IMG/VR virus record: IMGVR_UViG_3300042446_002028
Coordinates: 8,785-72,784 of that record
Length of the DNA: 64,000 bases
Source: a virus
Direction: 5' to 3' (one strand)
The notes under the pieces are model-generated. The model was not told where the DNA came from, searched no databases, and worked only from the letters and a program-made list of their open reading frames with translations. Positions 8,044 through 56,165 of this stretch are shown piece after piece. How positions within the stretch are numbered: position 1 is the first letter of the stretch; every line of letters begins with the position of its first letter. Both the position numbers and the translations under genes were made by a program.

Positions 8044-9374
8044 AAATAGTAATAGCACAATATTATACAAAAAATTTAACTCACGGAGTTTATGCTGAAG
8101 CGATAAATAGAAAATATGCTGAAGAAAATGGTTATGTATATTATGTTGATACCGATAATGATAAAATAGTACAAAAATTAAATGGTAGAGCGCCAACATG
8201 GTACAAGTCACATTTAATTTTAGATGTCTTTAAAGAACATAATCCAGATTATGTGTTATTTCTAGATACGGACGCAATTATATCTGACACTAATGGTAGG
8301 GTTGAACAGTTCATTGATGAAAACTATAATTTCATAGCGGCTAGAGATAATAGTGAGCATAGTTTAATGAACGCTGGTGTGTTCTTAATAAAAAATTGTG
8401 AGTGGTCGGTTAATTTTTTAAACGCTTGGTGGGATTTGGGTGCAACGGTTAAACCGTCTGAATCTAGAAATATACCAATTTCAGATCACGATATGGAAAG
8501 TGAGGGGTATTTCTTAAATCGCTTATGGATGGACCAAACATTATTAACAATAATGTATGAGAAATATGAAGAGTATAGAAATTATATGGGTATCATTTCA
8601 AATAGGTCATTTAATTGGATGAAATATGATGACAATAATTTTATTTTTCACGCATATGCGTATGGTGCCGTTAAAAATCGGACAATTGATTTAATACACA
8701 ATGAAATTTTTAATATTATGATTGAAATAGATAAAACAAGTTTAGCTGAATGGGCTACATTATATCATACTGATAAACACCATTCACATGGTTTTTTTGA
8801 TGGAGTATATCAAGATTTATTCTTACCGTTAAAAGATACAACAAATAAATTTGTGGAGCTTGGAGTGCACGAAGGTGGATCAATTAATATTTGGAAAAAC
8901 TTTTTTGAAAATTCACAAATCATTGGTTTGGACTGTTCATTCACATCTAGTAATATTAGAGACATGGATAGAATATCGTTAGTTAAAGTTAATTCCGCAA
9001 TTAAAGAAGAATTGGAAGGTTTTGCCAATCAACATACTGATATTGATGTGTTTATGGATGATGGCTCACATATCATGAGAGACCAACAAATAACATTAGG
9101 TGTCTTATTTAAATCCATAAAATCAGGTGGTATTTTTATATTAGAAGATTTACACACCAGTGTTAGCGTTAAAGAAAATAATGAATCAATATGGGGTAAA
9201 AAAAATGAAACAATAACATTAGATATGTTAGAGCGTTTCAATGAAACAGGTAAAATTGAATCTGATTTTTTAACCGATGACGAAGCGCGTTACTTAGAGG
9301 AAAATATTAAAGAATGTAAAATTTATAAACTTAAAGCAGATTGGAGCTATACGTCTGTTATTATTAAAAAATAA
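8040..9374 (+). CDS. Bifunctional glycosyltransferase / TylF(macrocin)-like SAM-dependent O-methyltransferase
   Basis: The N-terminal half has the nucleotide-diphospho-sugar transferase motif FLDTDAII (DxD). The C-terminal half has VELGVHEGGS (motif I of the TylF/MycF O-methyltransferase family) and DVFMDDGSH. Confidence 0.55.
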   Translation: MKIVIAQYYTKNLTHGVYAEAINRKYAEENGYVYYVDTDNDKIVQKLNGRAPTWYKSHLILDVFKEHNPDYVLFLDTDAIISDTNGRVEQFIDENYNFIAARDNSEHSLMNAGVFLIKNCEWSVNFLNAWWDLGATVKPSESRNIPISDHDMESEGYFLNRLWMDQTLLTIMYEKYEEYRNYMGIISNRSFNWMKYDDNNFIFHAYAYGAVKNRTIDLIHNEIFNIMIEIDKTSLAEWATLYHTDKHHSHGFFDGVYQDLFLPLKDTTNKFVELGVHEGGSINIWKNFFENSQIIGLDCSFTSSNIRDMDRISLVKVNSAIKEELEGFANQHTDIDVFMDDGSHIMRDQQITLGVLFKSIKSGGIFILEDLHTSVSVKENNESIWGKKNETITLDMLERFNETGKIESDFLTDDEARYLEENIKECKIYKLKADWSYTSVIIKK

Positions 9375-11064: not shown

Positions 11065-11096
11065 AAATATCGTGATATTTATATGTAAAAAAAACT

Positions 11097-11336
11097 ATGG
11101 CACAATTTAAAGTAATCGGTATTAACGCTTCAGAAGAAAGCGGTTTAACCAAAGAAACAATTGATCAAACATTTGCAACAAGAGATGAAGCTCATACATA
11201 TATAACCACGAATTTTACTTGGGATATGTTTGATAATGAAGAAACTAACGAGCATTATATGGCTTTAAGGTTTCATCACAACGATGTTGCATATGATTTC
11301 TTCCAGGTTCACGAAGTTGCTGAAGTGGTTGAATAA
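11097..11336 (+). CDS. Small acidic hypothetical protein
   Basis: A 79 aa ORF. Confidence 0.4.
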   Translation: MAQFKVIGINASEESGLTKETIDQTFATRDEAHTYITTNFTWDMFDNEETNEHYMALRFHHNDVAYDFFQVHEVAEVVE

Positions 11337-11382
11337 CCATTTTAAAAACATAAACAGATAAACGCGGCATAGATGGACCCTG

Positions 11383-11625
11383 ATGGTGATAAAAAAAATA
11401 AAATCTCTAAGAGAGAAAAACAAAAGAATAGCTTTCTACAAAGATACGTCTCTAATGTTAGCGATGTTCTTTCTCCCATTTGGGTACGACGCCTTATTCA
11501 AATTAATAATGGATTTGAGTGGTTCGTATTGGGTTGCAGATATCGTTTTTTATTCAATTTCCGCTTGTTTTTGGTGTTCTTATATATTACTTACCAAGTA
11601 CTTAAATAAAAAAGAAACCCCATAA
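11383..11625 (+). CDS. Small membrane protein (2 predicted TM helices)
   Basis: An 80 aa ORF, one of two overlapping frames (the other is 11373-11609). It ends at the terminator hairpin. Confidence 0.3.
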   Translation: MVIKKIKSLREKNKRIAFYKDTSLMLAMFFLPFGYDALFKLIMDLSGSYWVADIVFYSISACFWCSYILLTKYLNKKETP

Positions 11626-11641
11626 TTTGGGGTTTTTTTTA
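11615..11641. terminator. Bidirectional rho-independent terminator between convergent genes
   Basis: Hairpin AAACCCC-ataattt-GGGGTTT followed by T8. An A-run on the other side serves the reverse strand. Confidence 0.6.
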
Positions 11642-11791
11642 TTTCTTTTTCTTTTTCGTTAACTTTTCTTCTGGTTTTTGTAAACCTTTCTTGGTTTCAT
11701 CTTTTTTGATGTAGTGACCTTTTGTTGCCTCTTTATGTTTATCGAGGATTCTTTTTTTGTCTTCTTCAGACATGCTAAAAATTGAGTTCAT
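11639..11791 (-). CDS. Small lysine-rich protein (50 aa)
   Basis: ATG at 11789-11791, 2 nt after the stop of the upstream gene. Translation is MNSIFSMSEEDKKRILDKHKEATKGHYIKK...TKKKKK. It ends at the terminator. The ORF is below the 60-aa cutoff of the six-frame listing. Confidence 0.3.
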   Translation of the reverse strand: MNSIFSMSEEDKKRILDKHKEATKGHYIKKDETKKGLQKPEEKLTKKKKK

Positions 11792-11792
11792 T

Positions 11793-12083
11793 TTAAAATG
11801 TTTTTTGTTTTTTTATTCCTTCACATTCCAGTTTTTTAAATTGTAATGCTTGGCATTTTTCATATTCTTCTTTTTCCTCTAATACCTTAATTGCTGTACC
11901 AAGTATTTCAATGAAAAGTTCTAAATCATTGTCATAACTTAAAACGCTACAAGTACAATAATACTCATATAAGGTCTCATTGTCAATGCTTTTGAGATAA
12001 TCATATATCATGTGGACCTCATTGTCATCATAGTTTCCTTTATGTAAAATTCTTGTAGCTTGCAATAAAAAAGAAATAGACAT
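11793..12083 (-). CDS. Hypothetical protein
   Basis: A 96 aa ORF. Confidence 0.4.
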   Translation of the reverse strand: MSISFLLQATRILHKGNYDDNEVHMIYDYLKSIDNETLYEYYCTCSVLSYDNDLELFIEILGTAIKVLEEKEEYEKCQALQFKKLECEGIKKQKTF

Positions 12084-12094
12084 ACTAATAAATA

Positions 12095-18531: not shown

Positions 18532-18533
18532 AA

Positions 18534-18944
18534 GGTGGAGGTGACGGGACTCGAACCCGTGTCTTTCCTGCTCAACAATAAATGACTACACGTTTATTCA
18601 ATTAGTTCACAACTGACAAATATTTGGTTCCTATTTTGACATCGTTACCAACAACTGTGTCGAGTTCACTTTTGTTACGGTAGCCCTCTGAACAAGACCG
18701 TTTATTTCTTTTTGGGTAGAAATCACACCTTAAGAGCTTCTGTTCCTAGGTTACATGCTCGTCGACCCGATTGTAGTACCTAACTTGGTTAGGCAGCTAC
18801 TTTGGAAGTTGCAAGTAAACCTGCAATTTCCATGTTGTTGTAAACGTTGCCGTTTGAATTGTTTCACCGTAGATTTAAGTCATAGATGAATTCTGACTAC
18901 GTGCCATTTATTCCCGATACCTGAAATCAATGCCAGGCACCCCC
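18534..18944 (-). ncRNA. ssrA: tmRNA (ssrA), about 411 nt
   Basis: The reverse-strand 5' end is GGGGGUGCC and the 3' end is ...ACGGGUUCGAGUCCCGUCACCUCCACC. These form a 7-bp acceptor stem with a G3-U70 wobble, a T-arm and an encoded -CC. An internal frame GGC AAC GUU UAC AAC AAC AUG GAA AUU GCA GGU UUA CUU GCA ACU UCC AAA GUA GCU GCC UAA ends in ...KVAA-stop, which is tag-peptide-like. A terminator follows. Confidence 0.75.
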
Positions 18945-19024
18945 ATATGATAAAGAACTTAAAACAAATTTAGACAAAAAAAGTGAGAAAATCCCACTTT
19001 TAACATAAAAGAATAAGTTTGTTC

Positions 19025-19259: not shown

Positions 19260-19964
19260 TCAGGGAATTGCTACTAGTGGTAGATTCACCCCAAATTTAG
19301 TTTCAAATAATTCTTTATTTTGTTTCCATTGTTCATTTACCATTCCAATTGATTTATGAACAACTGTTATTTTAGTTGTAACACCTATTTTAACACCGGC
19401 CAAATAGTTTGACACACAGAATGGGATGTCGTAAAAGTGAAACCCTGGAAAATCCTCATCAAACCCGTTCGCGATTCGCGATTTGCGAACTGCGAAAAAC
19501 AAACCATCAACAATCACCACTTTTTTCAAATCTTCACCTAATAATCCAGAATAACTGTTCCTATGTATTTTACCTAAATGCTCATGTTTTACTTGACCGA
19601 ACATAGATGCTCTGTCTTGCCACCACATACCACTAATTAGGTTATTAGTACCTGCAATTCCAATGATTCCAAATTCAGGGTTATTATCAAATAACCTAGT
19701 TATTTTTTTTGTAACATTAACCGTTTCAATTGTTAAATCATCATGCATAAAAACAACATCATCATATTGAGAATCTCTTAAACCAACGTTATAAAGTTGA
19801 GGTAAAGAATATTCACCTTCATTTTCATAAACCAAGATTTCTGTTTTTGGATGTGAAAACATCTTACTAACATGTTTAAGATATTCATCATCAATTTTTC
19901 TTGTTGATATAACAACACTTACTGGGTAATTATTCTTCGACATAAGTTGCAACAATTTGACCAT
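19260..19964 (-). CDS. Glycosyltransferase, GT-A fold (family 2-like)
   Basis: N-terminal PVSVVISTRK (Rossmann-like) and FMHDDL (DxD-type). 234 aa. Confidence 0.55.
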   Translation of the reverse strand: MVKLLQLMSKNNYPVSVVISTRKIDDEYLKHVSKMFSHPKTEILVYENEGEYSLPQLYNVGLRDSQYDDVVFMHDDLTIETVNVTKKITRLFDNNPEFGIIGIAGTNNLISGMWWQDRASMFGQVKHEHLGKIHRNSYSGLLGEDLKKVVIVDGLFFAVRKSRIANGFDEDFPGFHFYDIPFCVSNYLAGVKIGVTTKITVVHKSIGMVNEQWKQNKELFETKFGVNLPLVAIP

Positions 19965-20682
19965 CGTATTCGTTTAAATCTACAATGATTGGTTTATTTG
20001 ATGGGTTATATTGTTCGGTACATGTGGATGCATTTACATAAAGAGTTTCTTTATTATACATAGCACCGTATGCTCCGTGAATATGTCCAAATACGTGTAA
20101 TGATGGTTTAATTCTATCATCTAATTGATGTCTTAATAATTCACAGCCCACATTCATATCTCCTTGTCTCCAATTACTCACAAAATCTCTAATTTCATGT
20201 GGCGGTCCATGTGTTATTAAAACGTCAGTATCGTCAGGAATCATATCCCATTTGCTTTTCATTTCCTCACCCATTCTTGGTAGGTTAAAAGCCCAATCAT
20301 AAAAGTTAGGTTGCCAAGGAGATCCATAAATTTTAATTGGACGAGAAAACTCTGGACGTTCAATTATCATAAAATTATCCTCTAAATAATATACATCAGA
20401 TTGTGCTAGATTTTCAGGGCCCATTAGATTGTTTAACCAATTGTAGTCACCTTTATGGTGTGGTTGATTAACTCTCTCAAAACAAAAGTCATGATTACCG
20501 GCGATGAATATTTTAGCATCAAATCCTTGTATGTTTTGAAACCAATATATAAAATTTGTAACATCAACCTCACCACCTTTATTGGAAATATCGCCAGAAT
20601 GGATTAATACATCACCTTTAGGTAACTCATGTTCCATTAGTTTATGTAAACTATGTGTGTCAGATATACAAACTATTCTCAT
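19930..20682 (-). CDS. Calcineurin-like metallophosphoesterase
   Basis: Contains ISDTHS, HSGDISNKG, AGNHDF and GHIH, which form the canonical DxH/GDxxD/GNH(D/E) phosphoesterase signature. Confidence 0.8.
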   Translation of the reverse strand: MRIVCISDTHSLHKLMEHELPKGDVLIHSGDISNKGGEVDVTNFIYWFQNIQGFDAKIFIAGNHDFCFERVNQPHHKGDYNWLNNLMGPENLAQSDVYYLEDNFMIIERPEFSRPIKIYGSPWQPNFYDWAFNLPRMGEEMKSKWDMIPDDTDVLITHGPPHEIRDFVSNWRQGDMNVGCELLRHQLDDRIKPSLHVFGHIHGAYGAMYNKETLYVNASTCTEQYNPSNKPIIVDLNEYDGQIVATYVEE

Positions 20683-20713
20683 TCAACTAATATAAATAAA
20701 TTTATTATAAAAA

Positions 20714-20742
20714 CAAAAAAAAAGTCAGAATTTCTTCTGACT
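20714..20742 (-). terminator. Rho-independent terminator (reverse strand)
   Basis: Hairpin AGTCAGAA-tttc-TTCTGACT. The A9 run on the forward strand is a T-run downstream on the reverse strand. Confidence 0.55.
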
Positions 20743-20744
20743 AA

Positions 20745-21690
20745 GGGGCTCGTTGGTTTTTCAATAAAATTTTTCCGAGATTCCACCACCATGATTTTTT
20801 AAAACCAGGAAACAATGTTTTTAAAAAGGGCTGAGATTACACCATTTAGCGATTGACTTTAGAGACATTATCTTTTCTTCTCTTATCCACTACCTTTTGA
20901 GTAGTACCAATCAGTGACGGTCAATTAGATTAACCAATTCTTTAGTCGTCGAATACTCTTTTAATACTCATTACTCTTCGAGGTTGCCACCCCAACGCAT
21001 CCTTGCGGGATTAGAGAACTTTCTTAAAAATCATGTTGGGCTTGGGACCCTTCATGGCCGAGAACCCCTCTCGACTGTGTAGTCACCTGTCTCCAACGAC
21101 TGATGGGCACTTTTCCTTGTTTTTTAAGTTGTTAAACCTGAATTAACAATTGAGTTGGTTCCGAATTTGGAAAGTAGCGGCCCATCTGCCAGCCAAGTCA
21201 TCTTTTGAACGACCCGATACTAAACTACTCTCTGTAACATCCCTGCTACCATATTTTTGGACCCCTTCAAAACTAAACCCTTGGTAGAGTTTAATTAAGG
21301 ATGATAACGACACCACTCGTACTTCACCATACCTTTCGGTTTTAAGATTCCCATCATATTGAATCACACAATTGTAAGATTGGAAATCCTACTTCTTGTA
21401 ATAACTCTACAGATTATTCTTATTGGTGTTCCCACCTCAACCAAACAACTCGGATTGCTTGATCATCGAACCACTTTCCCTACAGTGTTACCCTCAGTAA
21501 TTAAGGTTCAATGATATTCTGTTTGCCTACTCAAGTTCCATTGCTGAAACCGCAATCTGATTTAACCAAACCAGACCACTTTATCCCACTTTCATGGTTT
21601 ATTTTGTTGACCATAGGCGGCCAATATTTTTAAATCAAAGAACTAATTTATTTCTTTTGCAAAGATAAGTAATGTTTGTCAAAAAATCAA
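20745..21690 (-). ncRNA. Candidate large structured non-coding RNA (about 0.95 kb, ORF-poor, GC-elevated)
   Basis: No ORF longer than 74 aa in any frame. GC content is visibly higher than in flanking DNA (for example cttcatggccgagaacccctctcgactgtgtagtcacctgtctcc). The region is bounded downstream by a reverse-strand terminator and lies about 1.5 kb from the tRNA arrays. Strand is assigned only from the terminator orientation. Confidence 0.3.
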
Positions 21691-21698
21691 GTGTTTTT

Positions 21699-22478
21699 TC
21701 AAACTAAACTTAAATTTATTTTTTCTGGCGGTTTAACAACATCAATATTTGGGTTTTTAATGTCATATCCGTAGAAAAGATATTCTTTTTTAAATATATC
21801 ATTTAATGTCAAAAGATTGGTTTCAGATAATTCTTCACGTTTATTAATGTGATGAAACCCATCTAATAATCGTTTACTATAGTTGTATGAAAAATTAAAT
21901 GCTATCTTTTCTTCATCAGTTAAATCGTAGAACTCGTCAAAGATATGTAACATTTCGTTACAATACAAATTTATTAATCCCTCGCTATTTTCAACGTGCT
22001 TTGATGTTGAACCTAATTCATCTTTTTTTGCCAACAAGTCAATATCCTCAACGTGAATTATTTTGTAATGGTAAAACAATTCATCAAAACTTTTTCTAAA
22101 ATTTAACTCCTGGAAACCTTCAAAATTAATTTCTTCAGTGTTTAGGCCTAATATACCATGCGTTTGTGGTAAGAAATGTGCGTCAGGTAATTTGTCACAA
22201 ATTTCAACATAATTTGTTACATAGTCACTAATTGTCCTTACATTAAAGGTTTTAAAATATTCCAGATATCTTTTATCTAAATTTTTTTTCAACCAAGTAT
22301 ACCCTGAAACAAATCTTTCAATAGGATTGCGCGTTAATATGAAAAATTTTCTTCTTTTATATTTTGTGGTAAATTTAAGTAAATCATTATAATTGATAAA
22401 CTCATATTCCATTTTAATAATATCAAAGAAATATTTTAAAGTGGTAAGCATTAATCGCGAACCACTTCTATGTGTCAT
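21699..22478 (-). CDS. Putative sulfotransferase
   Basis: Contains IMTHRSGS (5'-PSB-like P-loop) and RNPIERFVSGY (3'-PB-like RDP..S.Y motif). ATG at 22476-22478 is the preferred start. The listed start at 22520 is GTG. Confidence 0.5.
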   Translation of the reverse strand: MTHRSGSRLMLTTLKYFFDIIKMEYEFINYNDLLKFTTKYKRRKFFILTRNPIERFVSGYTWLKKNLDKRYLEYFKTFNVRTISDYVTNYVEICDKLPDAHFLPQTHGILGLNTEEINFEGFQELNFRKSFDELFYHYKIIHVEDIDLLAKKDELGSTSKHVENSEGLINLYCNEMLHIFDEFYDLTDEEKIAFNFSYNYSKRLLDGFHHINKREELSETNLLTLNDIFKKEYLFYGYDIKNPNIDVVKPPEKINLSLV

Positions 22479-22524
22479 AATAAACCCAACATTTCTTTTT
22501 GGGAGATATATTCCTAACACAATA

Positions 22525-24072: not shown

Positions 24073-24087
24073 AGGGTACTTTTACTG

Positions 24088-24173
24088 CGGAGAGTAAGGG
24101 ACTCGAACCCTTGCGCCGCAAACGACCTAACAGTTTAGCAAACTGCCCCCTTCACCAACTTGGGTAACTCTCC
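24088..24173 (-). tRNA. tRNA-Ser(GCU), class II
   Basis: Acceptor stem GGAGAGU/ACUCUCC. The anticodon arm GCAGU-UUGCUAA-ACUGU reads GCU, with a long variable arm, in the cloverleaf folded by hand. T-arm AGGGUUCGAGUCCCU. Confidence 0.8.
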
Positions 24174-24177
24174 ATTG

Positions 24178-24248
24178 TTGTCCCTCTAGGATTCGAACCT
24201 AAACAAACTGCACCAAAAACAGTTGTGCTACCGTTACACCAAAGGACA
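24178..24248 (-). tRNA. tRNA-Gln(UUG)
   Basis: Acceptor stem UGUCCUU/AGGGACA. Anticodon loop UUUUGGU reads UUG in the cloverleaf folded by hand. T-loop UUCGAAU. Confidence 0.8.
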
Positions 24249-24311
24249 ATTTAATCATCATTGAGAATGTAGATTTTCACTAACTCGATTTAGCGGTCTC
24301 TTTGATGATTG

Positions 24312-24384
24312 AGCGAGTAGTCAGAATCGAACTGACATATCCTACTTGGAAGGAAGGCATAATAAGCCATTATACTATACTCGC
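24312..24384 (-). tRNA. tRNA-Gly(UCC) (tentative; D-stem register unusual)
   Basis: Acceptor stem GCGAGUA/UACUCGC. Anticodon loop CUUCCAA reads UCC in the cloverleaf folded by hand. T-arm GUCAGUUCGAUUCUGAC. There is a U-U mismatch in the anticodon stem. Confidence 0.6.
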
Positions 24385-24438
24385 TTTGATGGATGAAAAA
24401 CATCTATTCTTCTTGCGGACTTCCATCGGAGTCCCATG

Positions 24439-24510
24439 AGCTCCCACTCGGAATCGAACCAAGTTATCATGATTACAAGTCATGCGCATCGCCTGCAATG
24501 CTTTAGGAGC
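24439..24510 (-). tRNA. tRNA-Thr(UGU)
   Basis: Acceptor stem GCUCCUA/UGGGAGC. D-arm GCAU..AUGC. Anticodon loop CUUGUAA reads UGU in the cloverleaf folded by hand. Confidence 0.8.
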
Positions 24511-24516
24511 TTATTG

Positions 24517-24589
24517 TAGAAGATACCGGAATCGAACCAGTGACATCTTGCATGTAAAACAAGCGCTCTCCCAACTGAGCTAATCTTCT
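24517..24589 (-). tRNA. tRNA-Val(UAC)
   Basis: Acceptor stem AGAAGAU/AUCUUCU. D-arm GCUCAGUUGGGAGAGC. Anticodon loop UUUACAU reads UAC in the cloverleaf folded by hand. Confidence 0.8.
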
Positions 24590-24594
24590 ATGTG

Positions 24595-24668
24595 TGGACC
24601 AAACAGGATTCGAACCTGTGACCTTGTCGTTATGAGCGACCTGCTCTAACCATCTGAGCTATAAGTCC
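24595..24668 (-). tRNA. tRNA-Met(CAU), elongator-like (could be Ile2/lysidine)
   Basis: Acceptor stem GGACUUA/UUGGUCC (G1-C72). Anticodon loop CUCAUAA reads CAU in the cloverleaf folded by hand. The T-arm region GGUCACAGGUUCGAAUCC resembles elongator Met. Confidence 0.7.
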
Positions 24669-24721
24669 ATATCGTTTAATCTAACGATAAAATCTGTTAT
24701 CGTCTATATTGACGATTAATA

Positions 24722-24837
24722 GGTGCCGGAGAAAGGATTGATTACCTCCACGAGGTCCTTTCGGAGTACTCATCTTCTAGAATGCGACACGTCTCAACGT
24801 TACTCGTCAGCATCGTTGTTTATTCCGCCACTCCGGC
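24722..24837 (-). tRNA. Atypical 116-nt tRNA-like element (perfect 7-bp acceptor GCCGGAG/CUCCGGC, discriminator A, encoded CC; degenerate T-arm)
   Basis: The reverse strand reads GCCGGAGUGGCGG...GGAGGUAAUCAAUCCUUU-CUCCGGC-A-CC. There are no canonical D or anticodon arms. It lies inside tRNA array 1. Confidence 0.25.
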
Positions 24838-24961
24838 ATGTATCTTCTTTTACATCTTCCTCTTTTTTTGAATTAAATTCATCTAATGATTGGATGTAAG
24901 TTTTTCCGTCTTTAGTTGGAAAAGTTTCTTGTAAATATTGTTCTCTATTCATATTTTTATG

Positions 24962-25042
24962 TTGGGATAGACGGACTCGAACCGCCGAACTCAAAGAGAG
25001 CTGATTTACAGTCAGCCGCAATTGCCACTATGCGATATCCCA
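24962..25042 (-). tRNA. tRNA-Tyr(GUA), class II
   Basis: Acceptor stem UGGGAUA/UAUCCCA. Anticodon arm GCUGA-CUGUAAA-UCAGC reads GUA, with a long variable arm, in the cloverleaf folded by hand. T-arm GGCGGUUCGAGUCCGUC. Confidence 0.8.
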
Positions 25043-25047
25043 ATATG

Positions 25048-25129
25048 TGACCAAGGAGAGATTCGAACTCTCACGTCTTTCGACACTAGTGCCTAAAACT
25101 AGCGTGGCTCCCATTACACCACTCGGCCA
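25048..25129 (-). tRNA. tRNA-Leu(UAG), class II
   Basis: Acceptor stem GGCCGAG/CUUGGUC. Anticodon arm CUAGU-UUUAGGC-ACUAG reads UAG, with a long variable arm, in the cloverleaf folded by hand. Confidence 0.75.
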
Positions 25130-25135
25130 TTATTG

Positions 25136-25208
25136 CGCTCCCTGAGGGTCACGATCCCCCGACTCCATCATTAACAGTGATGTGCTCTACCAACTGAGCT
25201 AAGAAAGC
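25136..25208 (-). tRNA. tRNA-Asn(GUU)
   Basis: Acceptor stem GCUUUCU/AGGGAGC. Anticodon loop CUGUUAA reads GUU in the cloverleaf folded by hand. The T-loop is the non-canonical AUCGUGA. Confidence 0.75.
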
Positions 25209-25213
25209 GATTG

Positions 25214-25288
25214 TAGGGTAAAGAGGACTCGAACCTCCATGATGCCTTGCTCCCAAAGCAAGTGACTTAGCCATTAGTCCATTACCCT
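25214..25288 (-). tRNA. tRNA-Pro(UGG)
   Basis: Acceptor stem AGGGUAA/UUACCCU. Anticodon loop UUUGGGA reads UGG in the cloverleaf folded by hand. Confidence 0.75.
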
Positions 25289-25296
25289 ATTTATTG

Positions 25297-25370
25297 TGAT
25301 CCCATCAGGGATCGAACCTGAAACCCCAATCTTAGAAGGATTGTGCTCTATCCAATTGAGCTATGGAACC
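25297..25370 (-). tRNA. tRNA-Arg(UCU)
   Basis: Acceptor stem GGUUCCA/UGGGAUC. Anticodon loop CUUCUAA reads UCU in the cloverleaf folded by hand. D-arm GCUCAAUUGGAUAGAGC. Confidence 0.8.
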
Positions 25371-25486
25371 AATTTAATGTAATGTCTGTACGGTTTGTAT
25401 CTAATCAGCACCTTTGTACGCGCTTCAAAAGTTTCCATTTCATACATAGCGTCTGTTCCGTCACCTATTACTAGGTCATTACATTG

Positions 25487-25571
25487 TACTCGAGGCCGGA
25501 CTCGAACCGGCACGGACGTTTCTGTCCAAGGGATTTTAAGTCCCTCGTGGCTACCATTACACCACTCGAGC
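25487..25571 (-). tRNA. tRNA-Leu(UAA), class II
   Basis: Acceptor stem GCUCGAG/CUCGAGU (G1-U72). Anticodon arm AGGGA-CUUAAAA-UCCCU reads UAA, with a long variable arm, in the cloverleaf folded by hand. Confidence 0.75.
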
Positions 25572-25630
25572 ATTTCTTTCTCAATATGTCAAAGAACTCC
25601 TTTTCAAATATAAAGATAATAAATTGTAAA

Positions 25631-25662
25631 ACAAAAAACCCGAACATTTTTAGTTGTTCGGG
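25631..25662 (-). terminator. Rho-independent terminator (reverse strand) downstream of the secreted-protein gene and upstream of tRNA array 1
   Basis: Hairpin CCCGAACA...TGTTCGGG. The A6 run on the forward strand is a T-run downstream on the reverse strand. Confidence 0.5.
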
Positions 25663-25847
25663 TCTCGATATTAGTTTAAAAAATTTATTTATCCTTTATT
25701 GATATCCGAACATATGTAACATAACGGTTGCACACCATACCCATTACCATTATTAAGGGGTCTCGTACTCGTTGATATGTTATTTATATTCTTCATCGTT
25801 TTAATAAGTATATGCAAATATATTAAAATTATCAATAGTTAATAAAA

Positions 25848-26297
25848 TTATTTCACTTTATATGATAATCCAAGCCCTAATGTGAAATCATCACCAATTA
25901 TATTTCCAATTGTCCATAGATTTATAACACTACTTGGTCTAAGTGGATTGTACATTATAAGAAAATTAGGTTTATTTCCATTAAGTGTTGGTTGTAATCC
26001 AAACCCAACAATCGCTTTGTCCTCTTTTACTTGTCTAAGAACGCCAAACTTCATGTTATCGGATACGTTTCCTGTTTTGGTGTTGACACCAGGTGGAATT
26101 ACAATTCCACCGTTTTGACCACCCAATTCGCCATATGGAAGACCAGCATAGAATCCCCAACCTTTCTTCATAAAAGCACCTGTTATATAACCATCTGATG
26201 GACCACCTTTTCGAGTGGCGGTTATAAACCACTCTTGTCCATTTGCCACGACTTCCACTCCCAAAAGTAACGTTAGCATTAAAATAATTTTTTTCAT
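25848..26297 (-). CDS. Secreted hypothetical protein (signal peptide)
   Basis: N-terminus MKKIILMLTLLLGVEVVANGQ. 149 aa, Gly-rich. Confidence 0.5.
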   Translation of the reverse strand: MKKIILMLTLLLGVEVVANGQEWFITATRKGGPSDGYITGAFMKKGWGFYAGLPYGELGGQNGGIVIPPGVNTKTGNVSDNMKFGVLRQVKEDKAIVGFGLQPTLNGNKPNFLIMYNPLRPSSVINLWTIGNIIGDDFTLGLGLSYKVK

Positions 26298-26596
26298 TTT
26301 TTTGATTTGGTTAAGGAATCTTCCTTAGCCCACTTATCTTTTAAAATAACAACCTTCTCAATCTTTACAATTTTACCATTCAATTTGGTAATCTCGTCCG
26401 TGATTTCTTTGGTTTTGACGGCCCTGCTAGCGTAATTATCATCTGTTGCTTCAACCCATTCAATTTTTCTTTCAAGAGCTTTAATCTCTTTTTTAATTTG
26501 ATTGTAGGTCTTTCTTTCGTCGGAAAAACTTGGGTCGATAGAGGATGTTAATGTGTTAAAAAATAACATTAACGATAATGTGATTTTATCTATCAT
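26294..26596 (-). CDS. Membrane-anchored coiled-coil protein
   Basis: A 100 aa ORF with an N-terminal hydrophobic segment. An ATATTTATA box lies immediately upstream of the start. Confidence 0.45.
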   Translation of the reverse strand: MIDKITLSLMLFFNTLTSSIDPSFSDERKTYNQIKKEIKALERKIEWVEATDDNYASRAVKTKEITDEITKLNGKIVKIEKVVILKDKWAKEDSLTKSKK

Positions 26597-26674
26597 ATAT
26601 TATAAATATTAATAATATGGTAAAAATACAAAATAAAATATTGGGAATCAATAGTTTAATATATAAAAAGATTG

Positions 26675-26746
26675 TACTCAGTACGGGATTCGAACCCGTA
26701 TTACCTCCGTGAAAGGGAGGTGACCTAACCCTTAGTCGAACTGAGC
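26675..26746 (-). tRNA. tRNA-Glu(UUC)
   Basis: Acceptor stem GCUCAGU/ACUGAGU. Anticodon arm CCUCC-CUUUCAC-GGAGG reads UUC in the cloverleaf folded by hand. Confidence 0.8.
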
Positions 26747-26947
26747 AAGTGACACCATAATTTATCCAGCTTACAGGTGCCTTAGTTGTCCCCGACAAAT
26801 GTCAGGTTAGGAATAATCATTTCGTCCTCACGAGGTCGGGCTGATAAACCCAGACGTTATTCCTATACGTCTATGTACGTTCCCATACGGTTGTCAAACC
26901 GTTTCTCATCATATTGGGCATATTATTCGACGACTAAACGAATCGTG

Positions 26948-27033
26948 CGGAGAGAGTAGGATTCGAACCCACGGTTCCTTTCAGAACTTCGGTTTTCAAG
27001 ACCGACGCGATAGACCAACTCTGCCATCTCTCC
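26948..27033 (-). tRNA. tRNA-Ser(UGA), class II
   Basis: Acceptor stem GGAGAGA/UCUCUCC. Anticodon arm UCGGU-CUUGAAA-ACCGA reads UGA, with a long variable arm, in the cloverleaf folded by hand. Confidence 0.8.
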
Positions 27034-27132
27034 AAATTATCACATCAAACAGACATTCTACTCCCAGCTCCGAGGAATTGTATCTAACTTAGCCCATCTC
27101 ACCGCTGTATGGGTACCTGAAGATATGATTTG

Positions 27133-27206
27133 CGGACTGTACGGGACTCGAACCCGTGAACTCTACCGTGACAGGGTAGCATGATAACCAACTTCACCAA
27201 CAATCC
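27133..27206 (-). tRNA. tRNA-Asp(GUC)
   Basis: Acceptor stem GGAUUGU/ACAGUCC. Anticodon arm CUACC-CUGUCAC-GGUAG reads GUC in the cloverleaf folded by hand. T-arm ACGGGUUCGAGUCCCGU. Confidence 0.75.
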
Positions 27207-27525
27207 GAAATTGATTCTAACTCACCTTAAGTTGCACCATCCGAGTCATAGCTTTGGTTGACAAAGTCCTCGTTGAGTTAGTATCAAAAAAAAATAACAA
27301 GTTTTTCGCACCCATTCGTACATCATAACCAACATATCCCTACGTTGGTGGCTACACTTTCGTCATTGGGGTAATTATTCCCGACTTGTAGTAACTCTAC
27401 TCTCACCGCTATAATACCGCGAATCAAGGCGGGTGTTGAGATTTATAGACAGTGGGGTTTCACCACCGTCGTCACCTGTTATACAAATATAAATTAAATT
27501 TTTTAAAATTCAAAATACATTTTTG

Positions 27526-27593
27526 TTGCGGGGCCAGGAGTCGAACCTGGAACACTCGGCTTATGAGACCGGTGGGAAACCATTCTCCCCGCA
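27526..27593 (-). tRNA. Short (68 nt) tRNA-like element with a CAU anticodon loop (Met/Ile2/initiator-like; D-arm reduced)
   Basis: Acceptor stem UGCGGGG/CCCCGCA. Loop CUCAUAA. T-arm CCAGGUUCGACUCCUGG. The D region is only about 12 nt. Confidence 0.45.
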
Positions 27594-27595
27594 AT

Positions 27596-27673
27596 ATGGG
27601 GTGATTGACGAGATTCGAACTCGCTTTATTCTAGCGCCACAAGCTAGTGCTCTACCATACGAGCATCAATCAC
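27596..27673 (-). tRNA. tRNA-His(GUG), with CCA encoded
   Basis: Acceptor stem GUGAUUG/CAAUCAC, discriminator C73, then CCA. Anticodon arm CUAGC-UUGUGGC-GCUAG reads GUG in the cloverleaf folded by hand. Confidence 0.8.
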
Positions 27674-27675
27674 AG

Positions 27676-27746
27676 AGTCAGGTATTGGATTCGAACCAAT
27701 GTACGAGGTTTTGCAGACCTCTGCCTAGCCACTCGGCCAACCTGAC
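27676..27746 (-). tRNA. tRNA-Cys(GCA)
   Basis: Acceptor stem GUCAGGU/ACCUGAC, discriminator U73. Anticodon arm GAGGU-CUGCAAA-ACCUC reads GCA in the cloverleaf folded by hand. It lies 2 nt from tRNA-His. Confidence 0.75.
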
Positions 27747-27750
27747 TAAT

Positions 27751-27795
27751 TACTTCCGACTTTGGCGGTGTTTTACTTCCGACTTTGGCGGTGTT
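27751..27795. repeat. Tandem direct repeat, 2 x about 22 bp (tacttccgactttggcggtgtt)
   Basis: The sequence tacttccgactttggcggtgtt-t-tacttccgactttggcggtgtt is readable directly, between tRNA-Cys and tRNA-Arg. Confidence 0.8.
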
Positions 27796-27848
27796 GTTCA
27801 CTTTTGTTCTCTGTTCACGAACCGTGAACAAGCAACTTTTGTGAACAT
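27796..27848. promoter_or_regulatory. Cluster of GTTCAC/GTGAAC half-sites including a perfect palindrome GTTCACGaacCGTGAAC: candidate operator or processing site within tRNA array 2
   Basis: The sequence tgttcacttttgttctctgttcacgaaccgtgaacaagcaacttttgtgaaca carries gttcac twice and gtgaac twice in inverted arrangement. Confidence 0.35.
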
Positions 27849-27850
27849 CG

Positions 27851-27922
27851 AGGTCTCTAAAGGATTCGAACCTTTACCAAAACATCCGTAGTGTTTCATG
27901 CTATCCGTTACACCAAAAGACC
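27851..27922 (-). tRNA. tRNA-Arg(ACG)
   Basis: Acceptor stem GGUCUUU/AGAGACC. Anticodon arm AAACA-CUACGGA-UGUUU reads ACG in the cloverleaf folded by hand. Confidence 0.8.
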
Positions 27923-27929
27923 TTATTTG

Positions 27930-28000
27930 CACGGGTAGAGAGATTCGAACTCCCATCGAGGGTTTTGGAGACCCGTATGCTGCCGTTGCACCATACCCGC
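27930..28000 (-). tRNA. tRNA-Trp(CCA)
   Basis: Acceptor stem GCGGGUA/UACCCGU (G1-U72), discriminator G. Anticodon loop CUCCAAA reads CCA in the cloverleaf folded by hand. Confidence 0.75.
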
Positions 28001-28005
28001 GTGTG

Positions 28006-28079
28006 TGACCCCGAATGGACTCGAACCATTGACTCCCTCATTAAAAGTGAGGTGCTCTAACCAACTGAGCTACGAGGTC
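28006..28079 (-). tRNA. tRNA-Lys(UUU)
   Basis: Acceptor stem GACCUCG/CGGGGUC. D-arm GCUCAGUUGGUUAGAGC. Anticodon arm CCUCA-CUUUUAA-UGAGG reads UUU in the cloverleaf folded by hand. Confidence 0.8.
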
Positions 28080-28084
28080 ATTTG

Positions 28085-28157
28085 TGGAGATAGTTGGTTA
28101 CGATCCAACTCCTCTGGATTTTCAGTCCAGTGCTTCTACCAAGTTAGCTTCATCTCC
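28085..28157 (-). tRNA. tRNA-Phe(GAA)
   Basis: Acceptor stem GGAGAUG/UAUCUCC. Anticodon arm CUGGA-CUGAAAA-UCCAG reads GAA in the cloverleaf folded by hand. The T-loop is AUCGUAA. Confidence 0.75.
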
Positions 28158-28162
28158 TTATG

Positions 28163-28235
28163 TTCTTAGGGGTAGATTCGAACTACCAACCTCCTCGGTA
28201 TCAGCGAGGTACTCTCACCATTGAGTTACCTAAGA
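28163..28235 (-). tRNA. tRNA-Ile(GAU)
   Basis: Acceptor stem UCUUAGG/CCUAAGA. Anticodon arm CCUCG-CUGAUAC-CGAGG reads GAU in the cloverleaf folded by hand. Confidence 0.8.
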
Positions 28236-28240
28236 ATGTG

Positions 28241-28312
28241 TGGACACGTAGGGAATCGAACCCTTTCACTCTGATTGCAAATCAGGTGGTCTGCCATTGA
28301 CATCCGGCCCAT
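28241..28312 (-). tRNA. tRNA-like element, possibly tRNA-Ala(UGC); acceptor pairing not resolved
   Basis: T-arm AAGGGUUCGAUUCCCUA and a hairpin CCUGA-UUUGCAA-UCAGA (anticodon UGC) are present. I could not pair a 7-bp acceptor stem by eye. Confidence 0.3.
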
Positions 28313-53363: not shown

Positions 53364-54161
53364 ATGGAAAATCTGGTAAATATCGAGCGTCTAAGTGATT
53401 TATTATCAATACCTTCGGTAACATATGACGAATGGGACATGGTTGAGTACCTATCAGAGTATTTTGATAAAAAGGGTTATGAGTATGGTGTGGATTCATA
53501 TGGTAACATTTTTGTTACCAAGGGGACCGATGTAATAAAACCGTTGATTTGTGCTCACATAGACACCGTCCATAAAAAAACAAAAATCAACATAAAAGAA
53601 GAATGGTTACCTAGATTAAGTTGTTATGGTCAAGTATACCCATACGATGAAAACGTTTTATGTTTAAAGGGTTATGATGATAATGGTGAAGAAACTGGTT
53701 GTGGTGGTGATGATAAGTGTGGTGTATATGTTTGTTTAGAAATATTGGATCGTGTTGATAATATCAAACTAGCGTTCTTTGTTTCAGAAGAAACAGGTTG
53801 TATTGGTTCTAGTAATTGTGAACCAGAGTTTTTTGAAAATACAAAGTTCGTATTATCCTACGATGCTCCCGGAAATCAATTGGTTACCGAAATTTGTAAC
53901 GGTGTTAGAATATTTGATAGGGAAAGTGATTTCTTTAAAGTTGTTTCAAAAACATTTGAGGAGATTGATTATAAACCATTATATGGTAGTCATCCCTACA
54001 CAGACATTTATATGATGAAAAAACGATTTGATATTGATGGGGTAAATTTATCTTGTGGATATTATAATATGCACAGAAAATCAGAATATGTCTGTGTCGA
54101 CGACGTTGCTAAAGCCATCGACACAGGGCTTAAATTACTCACTAACCTTTCCAACAACTAA
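53364..54161 (+). CDS. M42/M20-like metallopeptidase (aminopeptidase/deacylase family)
   Basis: LICAHIDTVH (H.D metal ligand) and GGDDKCGVYVCLE (DDxxG metal ligand). 265 aa. Confidence 0.5.
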   Translation: MENLVNIERLSDLLSIPSVTYDEWDMVEYLSEYFDKKGYEYGVDSYGNIFVTKGTDVIKPLICAHIDTVHKKTKINIKEEWLPRLSCYGQVYPYDENVLCLKGYDDNGEETGCGGDDKCGVYVCLEILDRVDNIKLAFFVSEETGCIGSSNCEPEFFENTKFVLSYDAPGNQLVTEICNGVRIFDRESDFFKVVSKTFEEIDYKPLYGSHPYTDIYMMKKRFDIDGVNLSCGYYNMHRKSEYVCVDDVAKAIDTGLKLLTNLSNN

Positions 54162-56165
54162 TTTAAGAATTAGTTTATCTTCTTTGAATATTATTTTGTA
54201 ATTTTTATTCTCTTTAATGGTGCCTTTTAATATTTCATCACTAAGGAAATCTTCACATAGTGATTGAATTATTCTTTTGATTGGTCTAGCACCATATTCT
54301 TGTTGTTTATTTCTGTTGAAAATTTCATCAATAACAGTTGAATCAAATTTAATTGAATAACTTTTCTCAATTAATCTTTTTGTCAACTTTTCCATTTCTA
54401 ATGTAATAATTGATTTAAGTGCTGTTTCATCTAACGGATTAAATAAAACAATATCATCAATTCTATTTAGGAATTCTGGGTTAAATTGTTGTTTCAATGA
54501 TTTTTGAATCATAGTTCTTTTAACCTCATATGATTGTTGTTCGCTAGATGCTGTAGAGAATCCAATTCCTGCACCAAATTCGGAAACTCTTTTAGCCCCA
54601 ATATTTGAGGTCATAATAATCAACGTGTTGGTAAAATTTATTTTTCTACCAAAAGAATCTGTAACGTGTCCTTCATCCAATATTTGAAGTAAAATGTTAA
54701 ACACATCTTTGTGTGCTTTTTCAATTTCATCAAATAGAATCACCGAGAATGGATTGTTTTTAACCTTTTCAGTTAATTGCCCACCCTCATCATAACCAAC
54801 ATATCCTGGAGGCGCACCAACTAATCTTGATACTGTGTGTTTTTCCATAAACTCACTCATATCAATTCTAATAACATTGTCCGCTGAACCAAATATTAAT
54901 TCAGCCAAAGTTTTGGCTAGATATGTTTTACCCACACCAGTTGATCCCATAAAAATGAATGAACCAATAGGTTTTTGTGTTTCTTTAATCCCAACACGAT
55001 TTCTTCTAATGGCTTTGGATATACTAGCTAGAGCTTCTGATTGACCAATAACTTTTTCACCTAATCTTTTTTCAAGGTTAATTAAATTTTCAGTTTCTTT
55101 GCGGTCTAATCTAGTAATTGGAACACCGGCCATTGATGTGATCATTTCATAAACATCATCAATACTAATCGGTATTTTATTATTTTTTTCGTTGTCTGCC
55201 CATATTGCTTTTTCGCTATTTAAACGATTAATAACTTTTCTTTCTTCATCTCTTAGTTTTGCGGCTTGCTCATAATTTTGAGTACGAACAACTTCGAGTT
55301 TTTTTTCTTTAATAACTTCGGCATCCTTTTTTAATTTCTCAATAATTTCTGGAACCTCAATTACTACTCTTTTTTCCGAACCTAATTCATCTAGAACGTC
55401 AATTGCTTTGTCTGGGAATTGTCTATCTGTCATATAACGACCAGCAAGTTTGACCGCAATTTCAATCACACCTTCACCATAAGAAACTCTGTGATAGTCC
55501 TCATATGATTGCTTTAGATTTTTTAAAATCTCTATTGTTTCCGTTTCTGTTGGTTCTTTTAATATGATTTTCTGGAATCTTCTAACCAAAGCACCATCCT
55601 TTTCAATGTGTTTTTTAAACTCATCAAAAGTTGTGGCACCAATACATTGAATTTCACCTCTAGCTAATGCTGGCTTTAAGATATTTGCAGCATCCATTGC
55701 TCCAGAAGCGTTACCAGCACCAACCATTGTATGTAATTCATCTATGAAAAGAATTACGTTGGGGTTTTCGGCTAATTCGTGTATAATAGCTTTAATCCTT
55801 TCTTCAAATTGACCTCGATATTTTGTACCAGCAACTAATGAAGTTAAATCTAAGGAAACCAGTCGTTTATCCAATAAATTGGTTGGACAATTACCTTTAA
55901 CAATCATTAACGCTAATTTCTCAACAAGTGCAGATTTTCCAACACCCGCATCACCAACAATGACCGCGTTGTTTTTTTTCTTTCTCGAAAGAATTTGTGC
56001 AATTCTTTTTACTTCCTTGTCTCTACCAACGACCGGATCTATTTTATTATCCTCGGCTAGTTTGTTTAGATCCCTTGAAAAATTATCAAGAATTGGCGTT
56101 GTGGAGGAACTTTTTCTGTTCCTAGGGTTGGTTTTTGGACCGTCTTCAAAAAAATCTACTGACAT
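54135..56165 (-). CDS. ClpC/ClpA-like double-AAA+ unfoldase with a ClpP-docking IGF loop
   Basis: Walker A motifs GDAGVGKSAL (D1) and GSTGVGKTYLAKTLAE (D2), Walker B FIDELH and ILFDEIEKAH, and an IGF tripeptide (FGAGIGFSTA). At 676 aa it has no long N-domain or M-domain. Confidence 0.8.
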   Translation of the reverse strand: MSVDFFEDGPKTNPRNRKSSSTTPILDNFSRDLNKLAEDNKIDPVVGRDKEVKRIAQILSRKKKNNAVIVGDAGVGKSALVEKLALMIVKGNCPTNLLDKRLVSLDLTSLVAGTKYRGQFEERIKAIIHELAENPNVILFIDELHTMVGAGNASGAMDAANILKPALARGEIQCIGATTFDEFKKHIEKDGALVRRFQKIILKEPTETETIEILKNLKQSYEDYHRVSYGEGVIEIAVKLAGRYMTDRQFPDKAIDVLDELGSEKRVVIEVPEIIEKLKKDAEVIKEKKLEVVRTQNYEQAAKLRDEERKVINRLNSEKAIWADNEKNNKIPISIDDVYEMITSMAGVPITRLDRKETENLINLEKRLGEKVIGQSEALASISKAIRRNRVGIKETQKPIGSFIFMGSTGVGKTYLAKTLAELIFGSADNVIRIDMSEFMEKHTVSRLVGAPPGYVGYDEGGQLTEKVKNNPFSVILFDEIEKAHKDVFNILLQILDEGHVTDSFGRKINFTNTLIIMTSNIGAKRVSEFGAGIGFSTASSEQQSYEVKRTMIQKSLKQQFNPEFLNRIDDIVLFNPLDETALKSIITLEMEKLTKRLIEKSYSIKFDSTVIDEIFNRNKQQEYGARPIKRIIQSLCEDFLSDEILKGTIKENKNYKIIFKEDKLILKLVVGKVSE

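Follow-up and report, generated by a model that had tools for sequence, protein, structure and literature searches.

GOLLD RNAs have been known since 2009, and the work of Weinberg and colleagues in 2009 and of Morgado and colleagues in 2020 is said to have placed members in a Lactobacillus brevis prophage and in Mycobacterium tRNA arrays. Members of the family are carried by phages and prophages, lie near tRNA islands, rise in level during lysis and have been seen to bind ribosomes in pull-downs; no function has been assigned to any of them (PMC12286853, PMC6582537). In the Mycobacterium and L. brevis members a tRNA or pseudo-tRNA lies inside the gene, which sits within the array (PMC6582537). 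The member env-38 (JCVI_SCAF_1096627009515/1239-410; 833 nt) was solved by cryo-EM at 3.0 Å as a closed D7 homo-14-mer nanocage, with residues 1-420 forming the caps, 421-833 the rings and 497-538 a disordered interior linker; the cage is empty and might hold cargo (Kretsch et al., Nature 2025, PMC12286853). The linker of GOLLD sometimes holds a tRNA, a tRNA-free linker being allowed in the family, and conservation among members is lower in the 5' domain (PMC12286853). Another large RNA, ROOL (RF03087), forms an RNA-only 8-mer nanocage, likewise with no function assigned (PMC12286853).

The locus described here lies in the window, i.e., the whole 64,000-nt stretch of viral DNA that was analysed (IMG/VR record IMGVR_UViG_3300042446_002028, positions 8,785 to 72,784), in which the terminase large subunit and further phage protein families are encoded. 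A preliminary description, made from the letters alone, had singled out positions 20745-21690 as a candidate large structured non-coding RNA like the ornate phage RNAs GOLLD and ROOL, without choosing between the two, and had proposed an Infernal search against Rfam and a search for covariation in relatives as checks. The first of these returned GOLLD at full length and no other family. The covariance model RF02032 (Rfam 15, cmscan) matches the window at 21232..20828 on the minus strand with 317.2 bits (E 5.4e-90), more than twice the gathering score of 150 bits; the match spans model positions 1-416 of 416, is not truncated, has no non-canonical pair flagged, and recurs when the sub-region alone is scanned. 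The minimum free energy of the conserved RNA core (21624..20828, 797 nt) has a z of -3.07 against dinucleotide shuffles (only 20 shuffles), and with these values of E and z the GOLLD signal is far beyond chance. All GOLLD-defining features that can be tested from sequence were found in the window RNA. The gene-free stretch is best explained, and almost certainly correctly, as a GOLLD RNA gene (Rfam RF02032), complete and canonical, that lies on the minus strand. As a canonical member of the family, close to the structurally solved one, it is of a kind already known; any Rfam scan would annotate the locus, and identification alone matters little. That a reading of the bare sequence recognised a giant structured RNA makes the locus a clean positive control.

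A member of another large RNA class (ROOL, a group I or II intron, RNase P, OLE, HEARO or raiA) would have in its favour a general resemblance to ROOL only, namely to a large, structured, phage-borne RNA near tRNA genes. None of these classes matches at E<=1 within 20650-21750, where the sole Rfam match besides GOLLD is PreQ1 at 18 bits, a chance match; we count such a reading as refuted, with a probability close to nil. The RNase P signature that had been reported as missing is thus missing at the level of the Rfam model too, and of the two families first named only GOLLD stands. ROOL shares with the window RNA that it is a large ornate phage or prophage RNA near tRNA islands, but its sequence and secondary structure are unrelated and the window RNA is not a member; the two probably work in a similar way.

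No open reading frame longer than 74 aa is present in 20683..21698 on either strand, as first observed. The G+C content is 0.384 for 20745-21690 and 0.407 for the core vs. 0.33 for the window and 0.25-0.30 for the immediate flanks, which agrees with the GC enrichment noted earlier. The 74-aa frame (21143..21367, minus strand) lies on the RNA's own strand, as a small protein-coding gene or pseudogene would require, but among the 52 relatives aligned below it is frameshifted in 45 and stopped in two (in-frame test, used instead of an any-frame stop count, which is crude and uninformative here). Substitutions at codon positions 1-3 (0.35/0.27/0.28) show no third-position excess, no Pfam match exceeds the threshold (best E 0.088), and the longest open frames of the relatives fall in different frames and strands. 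A conserved protein, which would have told against the preliminary description, was thus not found: there is no protein family match and the 74-aa frame is not conserved. The coding reading has a negligible probability; the GOLLD locus does not code for protein. The claim that this was the only long stretch without a plausible open reading frame does not hold strictly, as the tRNA and tmRNA regions are also without a large one. Another stretch of about 1 kb without an open reading frame of at least 100 aa, at 11065-12094, is packed with small ones (79, 80, 50, and 96 aa), gives no Rfam signal, and is probably a set of small phage genes.

RF02032 models only the universally conserved 3' half of GOLLD, and separate evidence was therefore needed for the 5' half (21624..21233). 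With a conserved motif of the 3' domain, 101 loci were retrieved from IMG/VR, 85 of which match the window region by blastn. Fifty-two distinct IMG/VR relatives, 65-85% identical, align over window positions ~21644..20821 (query 57 to ~880) and were combined with the window sequence in an alignment of 53 full-length sequences (hereafter A1), in which conservation starts at window position 21624 and ends at 20828. All ten relatives checked are Rfam GOLLD, at 280-323 bits. A1 covers the 5' domain, which Rfam does not model, and shows that in this lake clade it is conserved no less than the 3' domain. Over the whole length, RNAalifold gave a structure of 189 pairs, with compensatory double changes at 115, and recovered the long-range helix of the 3' domain (A1 columns 625-635 with 775-784, many double changes). 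The 5' domain comprises 19 helices with 100 pairs; 98.0% of its cells are paired vs. 87.2% in shuffles, and both sides have changed in 64 of the 100 pairs, where shuffles give 38.7 and slid controls (partners moved by 1-3 columns) give 13-27. The covariation score reaches 0.407, with 0.06-0.11 for the slid controls, and none of 500 shuffles reaches any observed measure; the structure had been predicted on the same alignment that was used for scoring, which favours it somewhat, but the margin is large. The covariation proposed as a check is strongly positive over the whole length, 5' half included, and structure is conserved in the relatives. Both domains are homologous to known GOLLD RNAs, and their helices have been kept by compensatory substitutions.

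The 3' domain contains a variable linker with a small local hairpin (UUGUUAA/UUAACAA). ARAGORN found no tRNA in this linker, neither in the window nor in any of 69 distinct related GOLLD loci (among L001-L139 and L194; median 10.6 kb of DNA each).

For comparison with the solved cage, we used the env-38 sequence given in Supplementary Table 4 of PMC12286853, in a machine-read copy of 816 nt that is 17 short of the full 833; its last bases were repaired from the reverse primer, and bridge residues were mapped with piecewise offsets. Aligned end to end, env-38 and the window RNA are identical at 277 of 369 positions in the 5' domain and 277 of 375 in the 3' domain, or about 75% over both domains, the core having 797 nt here vs. 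833 nt in env-38, and the first and last nucleotides of env-38 corresponding to window ~21623 and 20828. Both RNAs are phage-borne and lie near tRNA genes, and the variable linker is in the same place, the window linker being the counterpart of residues 497-538. The window RNA differs from env-38 in having no tRNA immediately adjacent or in the linker, in a tail of about 85 nt with an invariant UGGUGGAAY on its 3' side, absent from the env-38 construct and from the Rfam model, and in one B4 contact, where C257 of env-38 is an A.

The key residues of all ten intermolecular bridges of env-38 (B1-B10) are either kept or compensated in the window RNA (Table 1). The helix pairs that receive the A-minor contacts of B1 and B6 have changed on both sides, from A-U to C-G and from U-A to G-C. 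At B7, C21045-G21115 of the window takes the place of the intermolecular pair U617-A547 of env-38; in A1 (columns 611/683) 40 sequences have C-G there and 13 have G-C, the same 13 changing both columns. Covariation at this contact has already been reported (PMC12286853), and A1 independently recovers it on other sequences. This covariation is good indirect evidence that the clade would form a quaternary structure of the env-38 type.

Table 1 Features of the GOLLD locus and its surroundings. Positions are those of the window; B1-B10 are the intermolecular bridges of env-38; A1, alignment of the window RNA with 52 relatives.
Feature	Position	Strand	Basis or remark
Sulfotransferase-like protein gene	21699..22520	-	Upstream neighbour of the gene-free stretch
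Promoter-like motif TTG-N20-TATCTTTG	21660..21690	-	Putative; ~36 nt upstream of the first GOLLD helix
Presumed 5' leader	21625..21659	-	Contains GTTCTTTGATTTAAAAATAT, kept only in the closest subclade (upstream alignment)
GOLLD 5' domain	21233..21624	-	Aligned relatives and env-38; beyond the Rfam model
B1-B5 bridge nucleotides	in 5' domain, 21233..21624	-	Conserved
B1			GAAA loop adenines kept
B2			GAGGGUAAC kept
B3			All residues kept
B4			GGGA with UCC kept; peripheral pair G410-C257 lost (C257 to A)
B5			GGU with A-C-A kept
GOLLD 3' domain	20828..21232	-	RF02032 match; includes the long-range helix written [[[ ]]] in the model
Variable linker within 3' domain	21118..21170	-	Least conserved A1 columns, ~545-606
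B6-B10 bridge nucleotides	in 3' domain, 20828..21232	-	Conserved or compensated
B6			AA of UUCAAAAG kept
B8, B9			Self-complementary GC dinucleotides kept
B10			AA kept
Subclade-specific 3' tail	20743..20827	-	~85 nt between the canonical GOLLD end and the terminator
Tail, A/U-rich hairpin	20809..20789	-	
Tail, invariant UGGUGGAAU	20788..20780	-	UGGUGGAAY in the subclade
Tail, second weak hairpin	20779..20749	-	
Tail, CCCC	20748..20745	-	RCCC in the subclade
Intrinsic terminator, AGUCAGAAGAAAUUCUGACU then U9	20714..20742	-	Terminator scan
Metallophosphoesterase gene	19930..20682	-	Downstream neighbour of the gene-free stretch
Phage tmRNA	18533-18944	-	Rfam 83.9 bits vs. gathering score 47
tRNA array, 22-24 genes	24087-28310	same strand as GOLLD	ARAGORN 22, Rfam 24

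By homology to env-38, the window RNA is predicted to have a 'cap' domain on the 5' side and a 'ring' domain on the 3' side. It would assemble by itself, with no need of protein, into a closed homo-14-mer nanocage whose subunits are joined by kissing loops and A-minor contacts, and the variable linker (~21170..21118) would face the cage interior. We infer this 14-mer assembly from the identity of about 75% and the conserved contact nucleotides. A separate observation concerns four relatives (L004, L078, L079, and L092) without the hairpin that bears the CGCAAG loop (A1 columns 715-730), which makes the self-complementary GC contact, bridge B8, of the env-38 cage; in these the half-cages would be joined differently or more weakly.

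The same comparisons bear on whether the locus is a decayed, non-functional GOLLD remnant. Nothing specific speaks for decay, apart from a thermodynamically unremarkable tail and the one B4 contact pair lost, whereas RF02032 is matched at full length without flagged non-canonical pairs, all 5'-domain helices are intact in the window (98% paired in the alignment), nearly all bridge nucleotides are kept, and at 317 bits the locus scores no lower than its relatives (280-323). Decay is extremely improbable, and the locus is taken in what follows as a complete GOLLD gene.

The RNA had been placed before a clean reverse-strand rho-independent terminator, and the sequence agrees: the GOLLD match is on the minus strand and is followed by the terminator at 20742..20714, with its stem at 20742..20723 and the U-run extending to ~20714. 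All close relatives have a terminator hairpin with a U-run here. Those of the window are also present in L098, L104, L135, L120, and L137; L004, L078, and L079 have an unrelated stem, GGGAUGGAGAAAUCUAUCCC, with U7 at the same place. At the other end, TTG...TAnnTTTG is the -33/-7 promoter consensus of Bacteroidota, and four distinct relatives (L098, L092/L004, L078/L079, and L058) have (T/C)TTG-N19-20-TAnnTTTG in the corresponding position ahead of GOLLD. In the window neither TAnnTTTG (94 vs. 106 expected) nor TTG-N18-21-TAnnTTTG (seven vs. ten expected) is enriched, and a sigma-70 scan gave no promoter at the GOLLD 5' end. The promoter call is based on positional conservation and on the Bacteroidota consensus, and it is tentative because the motif is not enriched in the window. 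From promoter-like motif to terminator, GOLLD appears to be a transcription unit of its own, which, if the promoter call is right, would run from ~21654 to ~20714. Its predicted length of ~0.94 kb is close to the ~0.95 kb of the preliminary description; the limits given there, 21690 and 20745, lie outside the core and correspond to the upstream end of the promoter-like motif and the end of the 3' tail.

The region lies immediately upstream of the metallophosphoesterase gene (19930..20682, minus strand) on the same strand, and the order GOLLD then phosphoesterase is kept in 11 related loci, as would be expected of a structured 5' leader or cis-regulatory element of that gene. A strong intrinsic terminator stands between the two, however, and relatives keep one there, built on either of two stem sequences; the phosphoesterase gene has a TAnnTT(T/A)G-like motif of its own ~10 nt ahead of its ATG, both in the window and in relatives; the phosphoesterase gene is downstream in only 11 of 91 GOLLD loci of the larger clade; and GOLLD is a free-standing RNA in the literature (PMC12286853). 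A leader of the phosphoesterase gene is therefore very improbable, and a free-standing GOLLD RNA is the preferred reading.

The layout of the 3' tail, i.e., hairpin, UGGUGGAAY, hairpin, RCCC, and terminator, was found in nine distinct sequences (the window and eight others: L098, L104, L135, L120, L137, L004, L078, and L079), in which the stem sequences of both hairpins differ strongly between members; the tail gives no thermodynamic signal in the window (z = -0.44). A scan of IMG/VR with the tail motif gave 44 loci, 38 of them new, of which five are real; the other 33 of the 38 are chance matches. The invariant UGGUGGAAY repeats or resembles the GUGGUG loop of bridge B5, whose partner is the UACCAA loop, and for this reason the tail could compete for the B5 contact or add to it. 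That in the freshwater subclade it does so, and thereby gates cage closure or tethers cargo, so that together with the surrounding RNA island GOLLD would be a regulated container for the phage's own translation RNAs, is an unlikely proposal built on sequence resemblance and linkage. The conserved tail and the neighbourhood of phosphoesterase and glycosyltransferase genes offer further handles on the function of GOLLD.

The tRNA array and the tmRNA lie within 2.4 kb of GOLLD and form with it a phage RNA island. The proximity of both to the RNA had been recognised correctly; the distances and numbers need adjustment, the nearest tRNA gene (24087) being 2.4 kb away and not ~1.5 kb, the array holding 22 (ARAGORN) to 24 (Rfam) genes and not ~25, and the tmRNA being at 1.8 kb vs. 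the ~2 kb claimed. Two borderline tRNAs at the array edges, 27526-27593 and 28241-28310 (both on the minus strand), were found by Rfam only (33.4 and 29.7 bits vs. a gathering score of 29) and may represent tRNA genes that are degenerate or unusual. The tmRNA at 18533-18944 was not called by ARAGORN; its tag, read from the expected resume codon, is GNVYNNMEIAGLLATSKVAA followed by a stop, and a TAAATTTG motif lies 21 nt upstream (18972..18965).

Among the 69 related loci, a tmRNA lies near GOLLD in 33 (median distance 1.16 kb, minimum 69 nt, on either strand) and at least one tRNA gene is present in 30. In part, the linkage of GOLLD and tmRNA may be inherited synteny, since the loci come from related phages. 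The conserved gene order of the subclade is RNaseH-like protein, 73-aa protein, GOLLD, phosphoesterase, glycosyltransferase, and tmRNA. In the accessible portions of the literature that mentions both RNAs, no description of their adjacency was found. Compared by description, the window GOLLD belongs to the same family as the members in Mycobacterium arrays and the L. brevis prophage, which are likewise associated with horizontally mobile tRNA clusters of phage origin, but it lies 2.4 kb outside the array and has no internal tRNA, whereas those members lie within the array; unlike them, it has protein genes and a phage tmRNA as neighbours.

GOLLD is persistently linked with tRNA arrays and, within this clade, also with a phage tmRNA, and for this reason a role in connection with the translation apparatus is considered. 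The cage might be made during lytic growth and might sequester or scaffold parts of that apparatus, i.e., tRNAs, tmRNA or ribosomal particles. Of the mechanisms considered this is the likeliest; it is a speculative possibility drawn from correlation, and we hold it as tentative. The phage tmRNA beside GOLLD in about half of the related loci provides a handle on function.

A BLAST search of 50,697 deposited phage genomes with the region gave two weak partial matches only, neither covering most of the query, in the uncultured huge phages LR745206.1 (635 kb) and LR756502.1 (642 kb), and a megablast of the 24 kb around the region against deposited phage genomes gave nothing but a tRNA; the phage is therefore absent from this collection. 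The GOLLD of LR745206.1, one of the ten relatives checked above, scores 287 bits (L260 = 418953-422172; locus 1923-2328); two tRNA genes lie just upstream of it, and the record is without annotation. Bacterial genome contigs were scanned with the GOLLD motif as well, a pattern too short for 596 Gb, and gave at least 120 matches; 119 of the 120 matches listed are chance (nhmmer). The only bacterial contig with a real GOLLD among those listed is NZ_JBJTND010000053.1 (L194), binned as a Flavobacterium sp. MAG. Its order of GOLLD, phosphoesterase (82% amino acid identity), glycosyltransferase, and tmRNA is that of the window.

In the window a Shine-Dalgarno-like core precedes only two of 43 large open reading frames, and motifs of the TAnnTTTG type are found ahead of GOLLD, of the tmRNA, and of a tRNA block, with a TATATTAG variant before the phosphoesterase gene. 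The scarcity of Shine-Dalgarno cores, the promoter-like motifs, and the Flavobacterium-binned contig together weakly suggest a Bacteroidota host, probably in a phage-host system of the Flavobacterium type. Elsewhere in the window, at 54135-56165 on the minus strand, lies a gene for a ClpB/Hsp104-like double AAA+ ATPase (phrog_4871, 777 bits; Pfam AAA_2, AAA_lid_9, and ClpB_D2-small).
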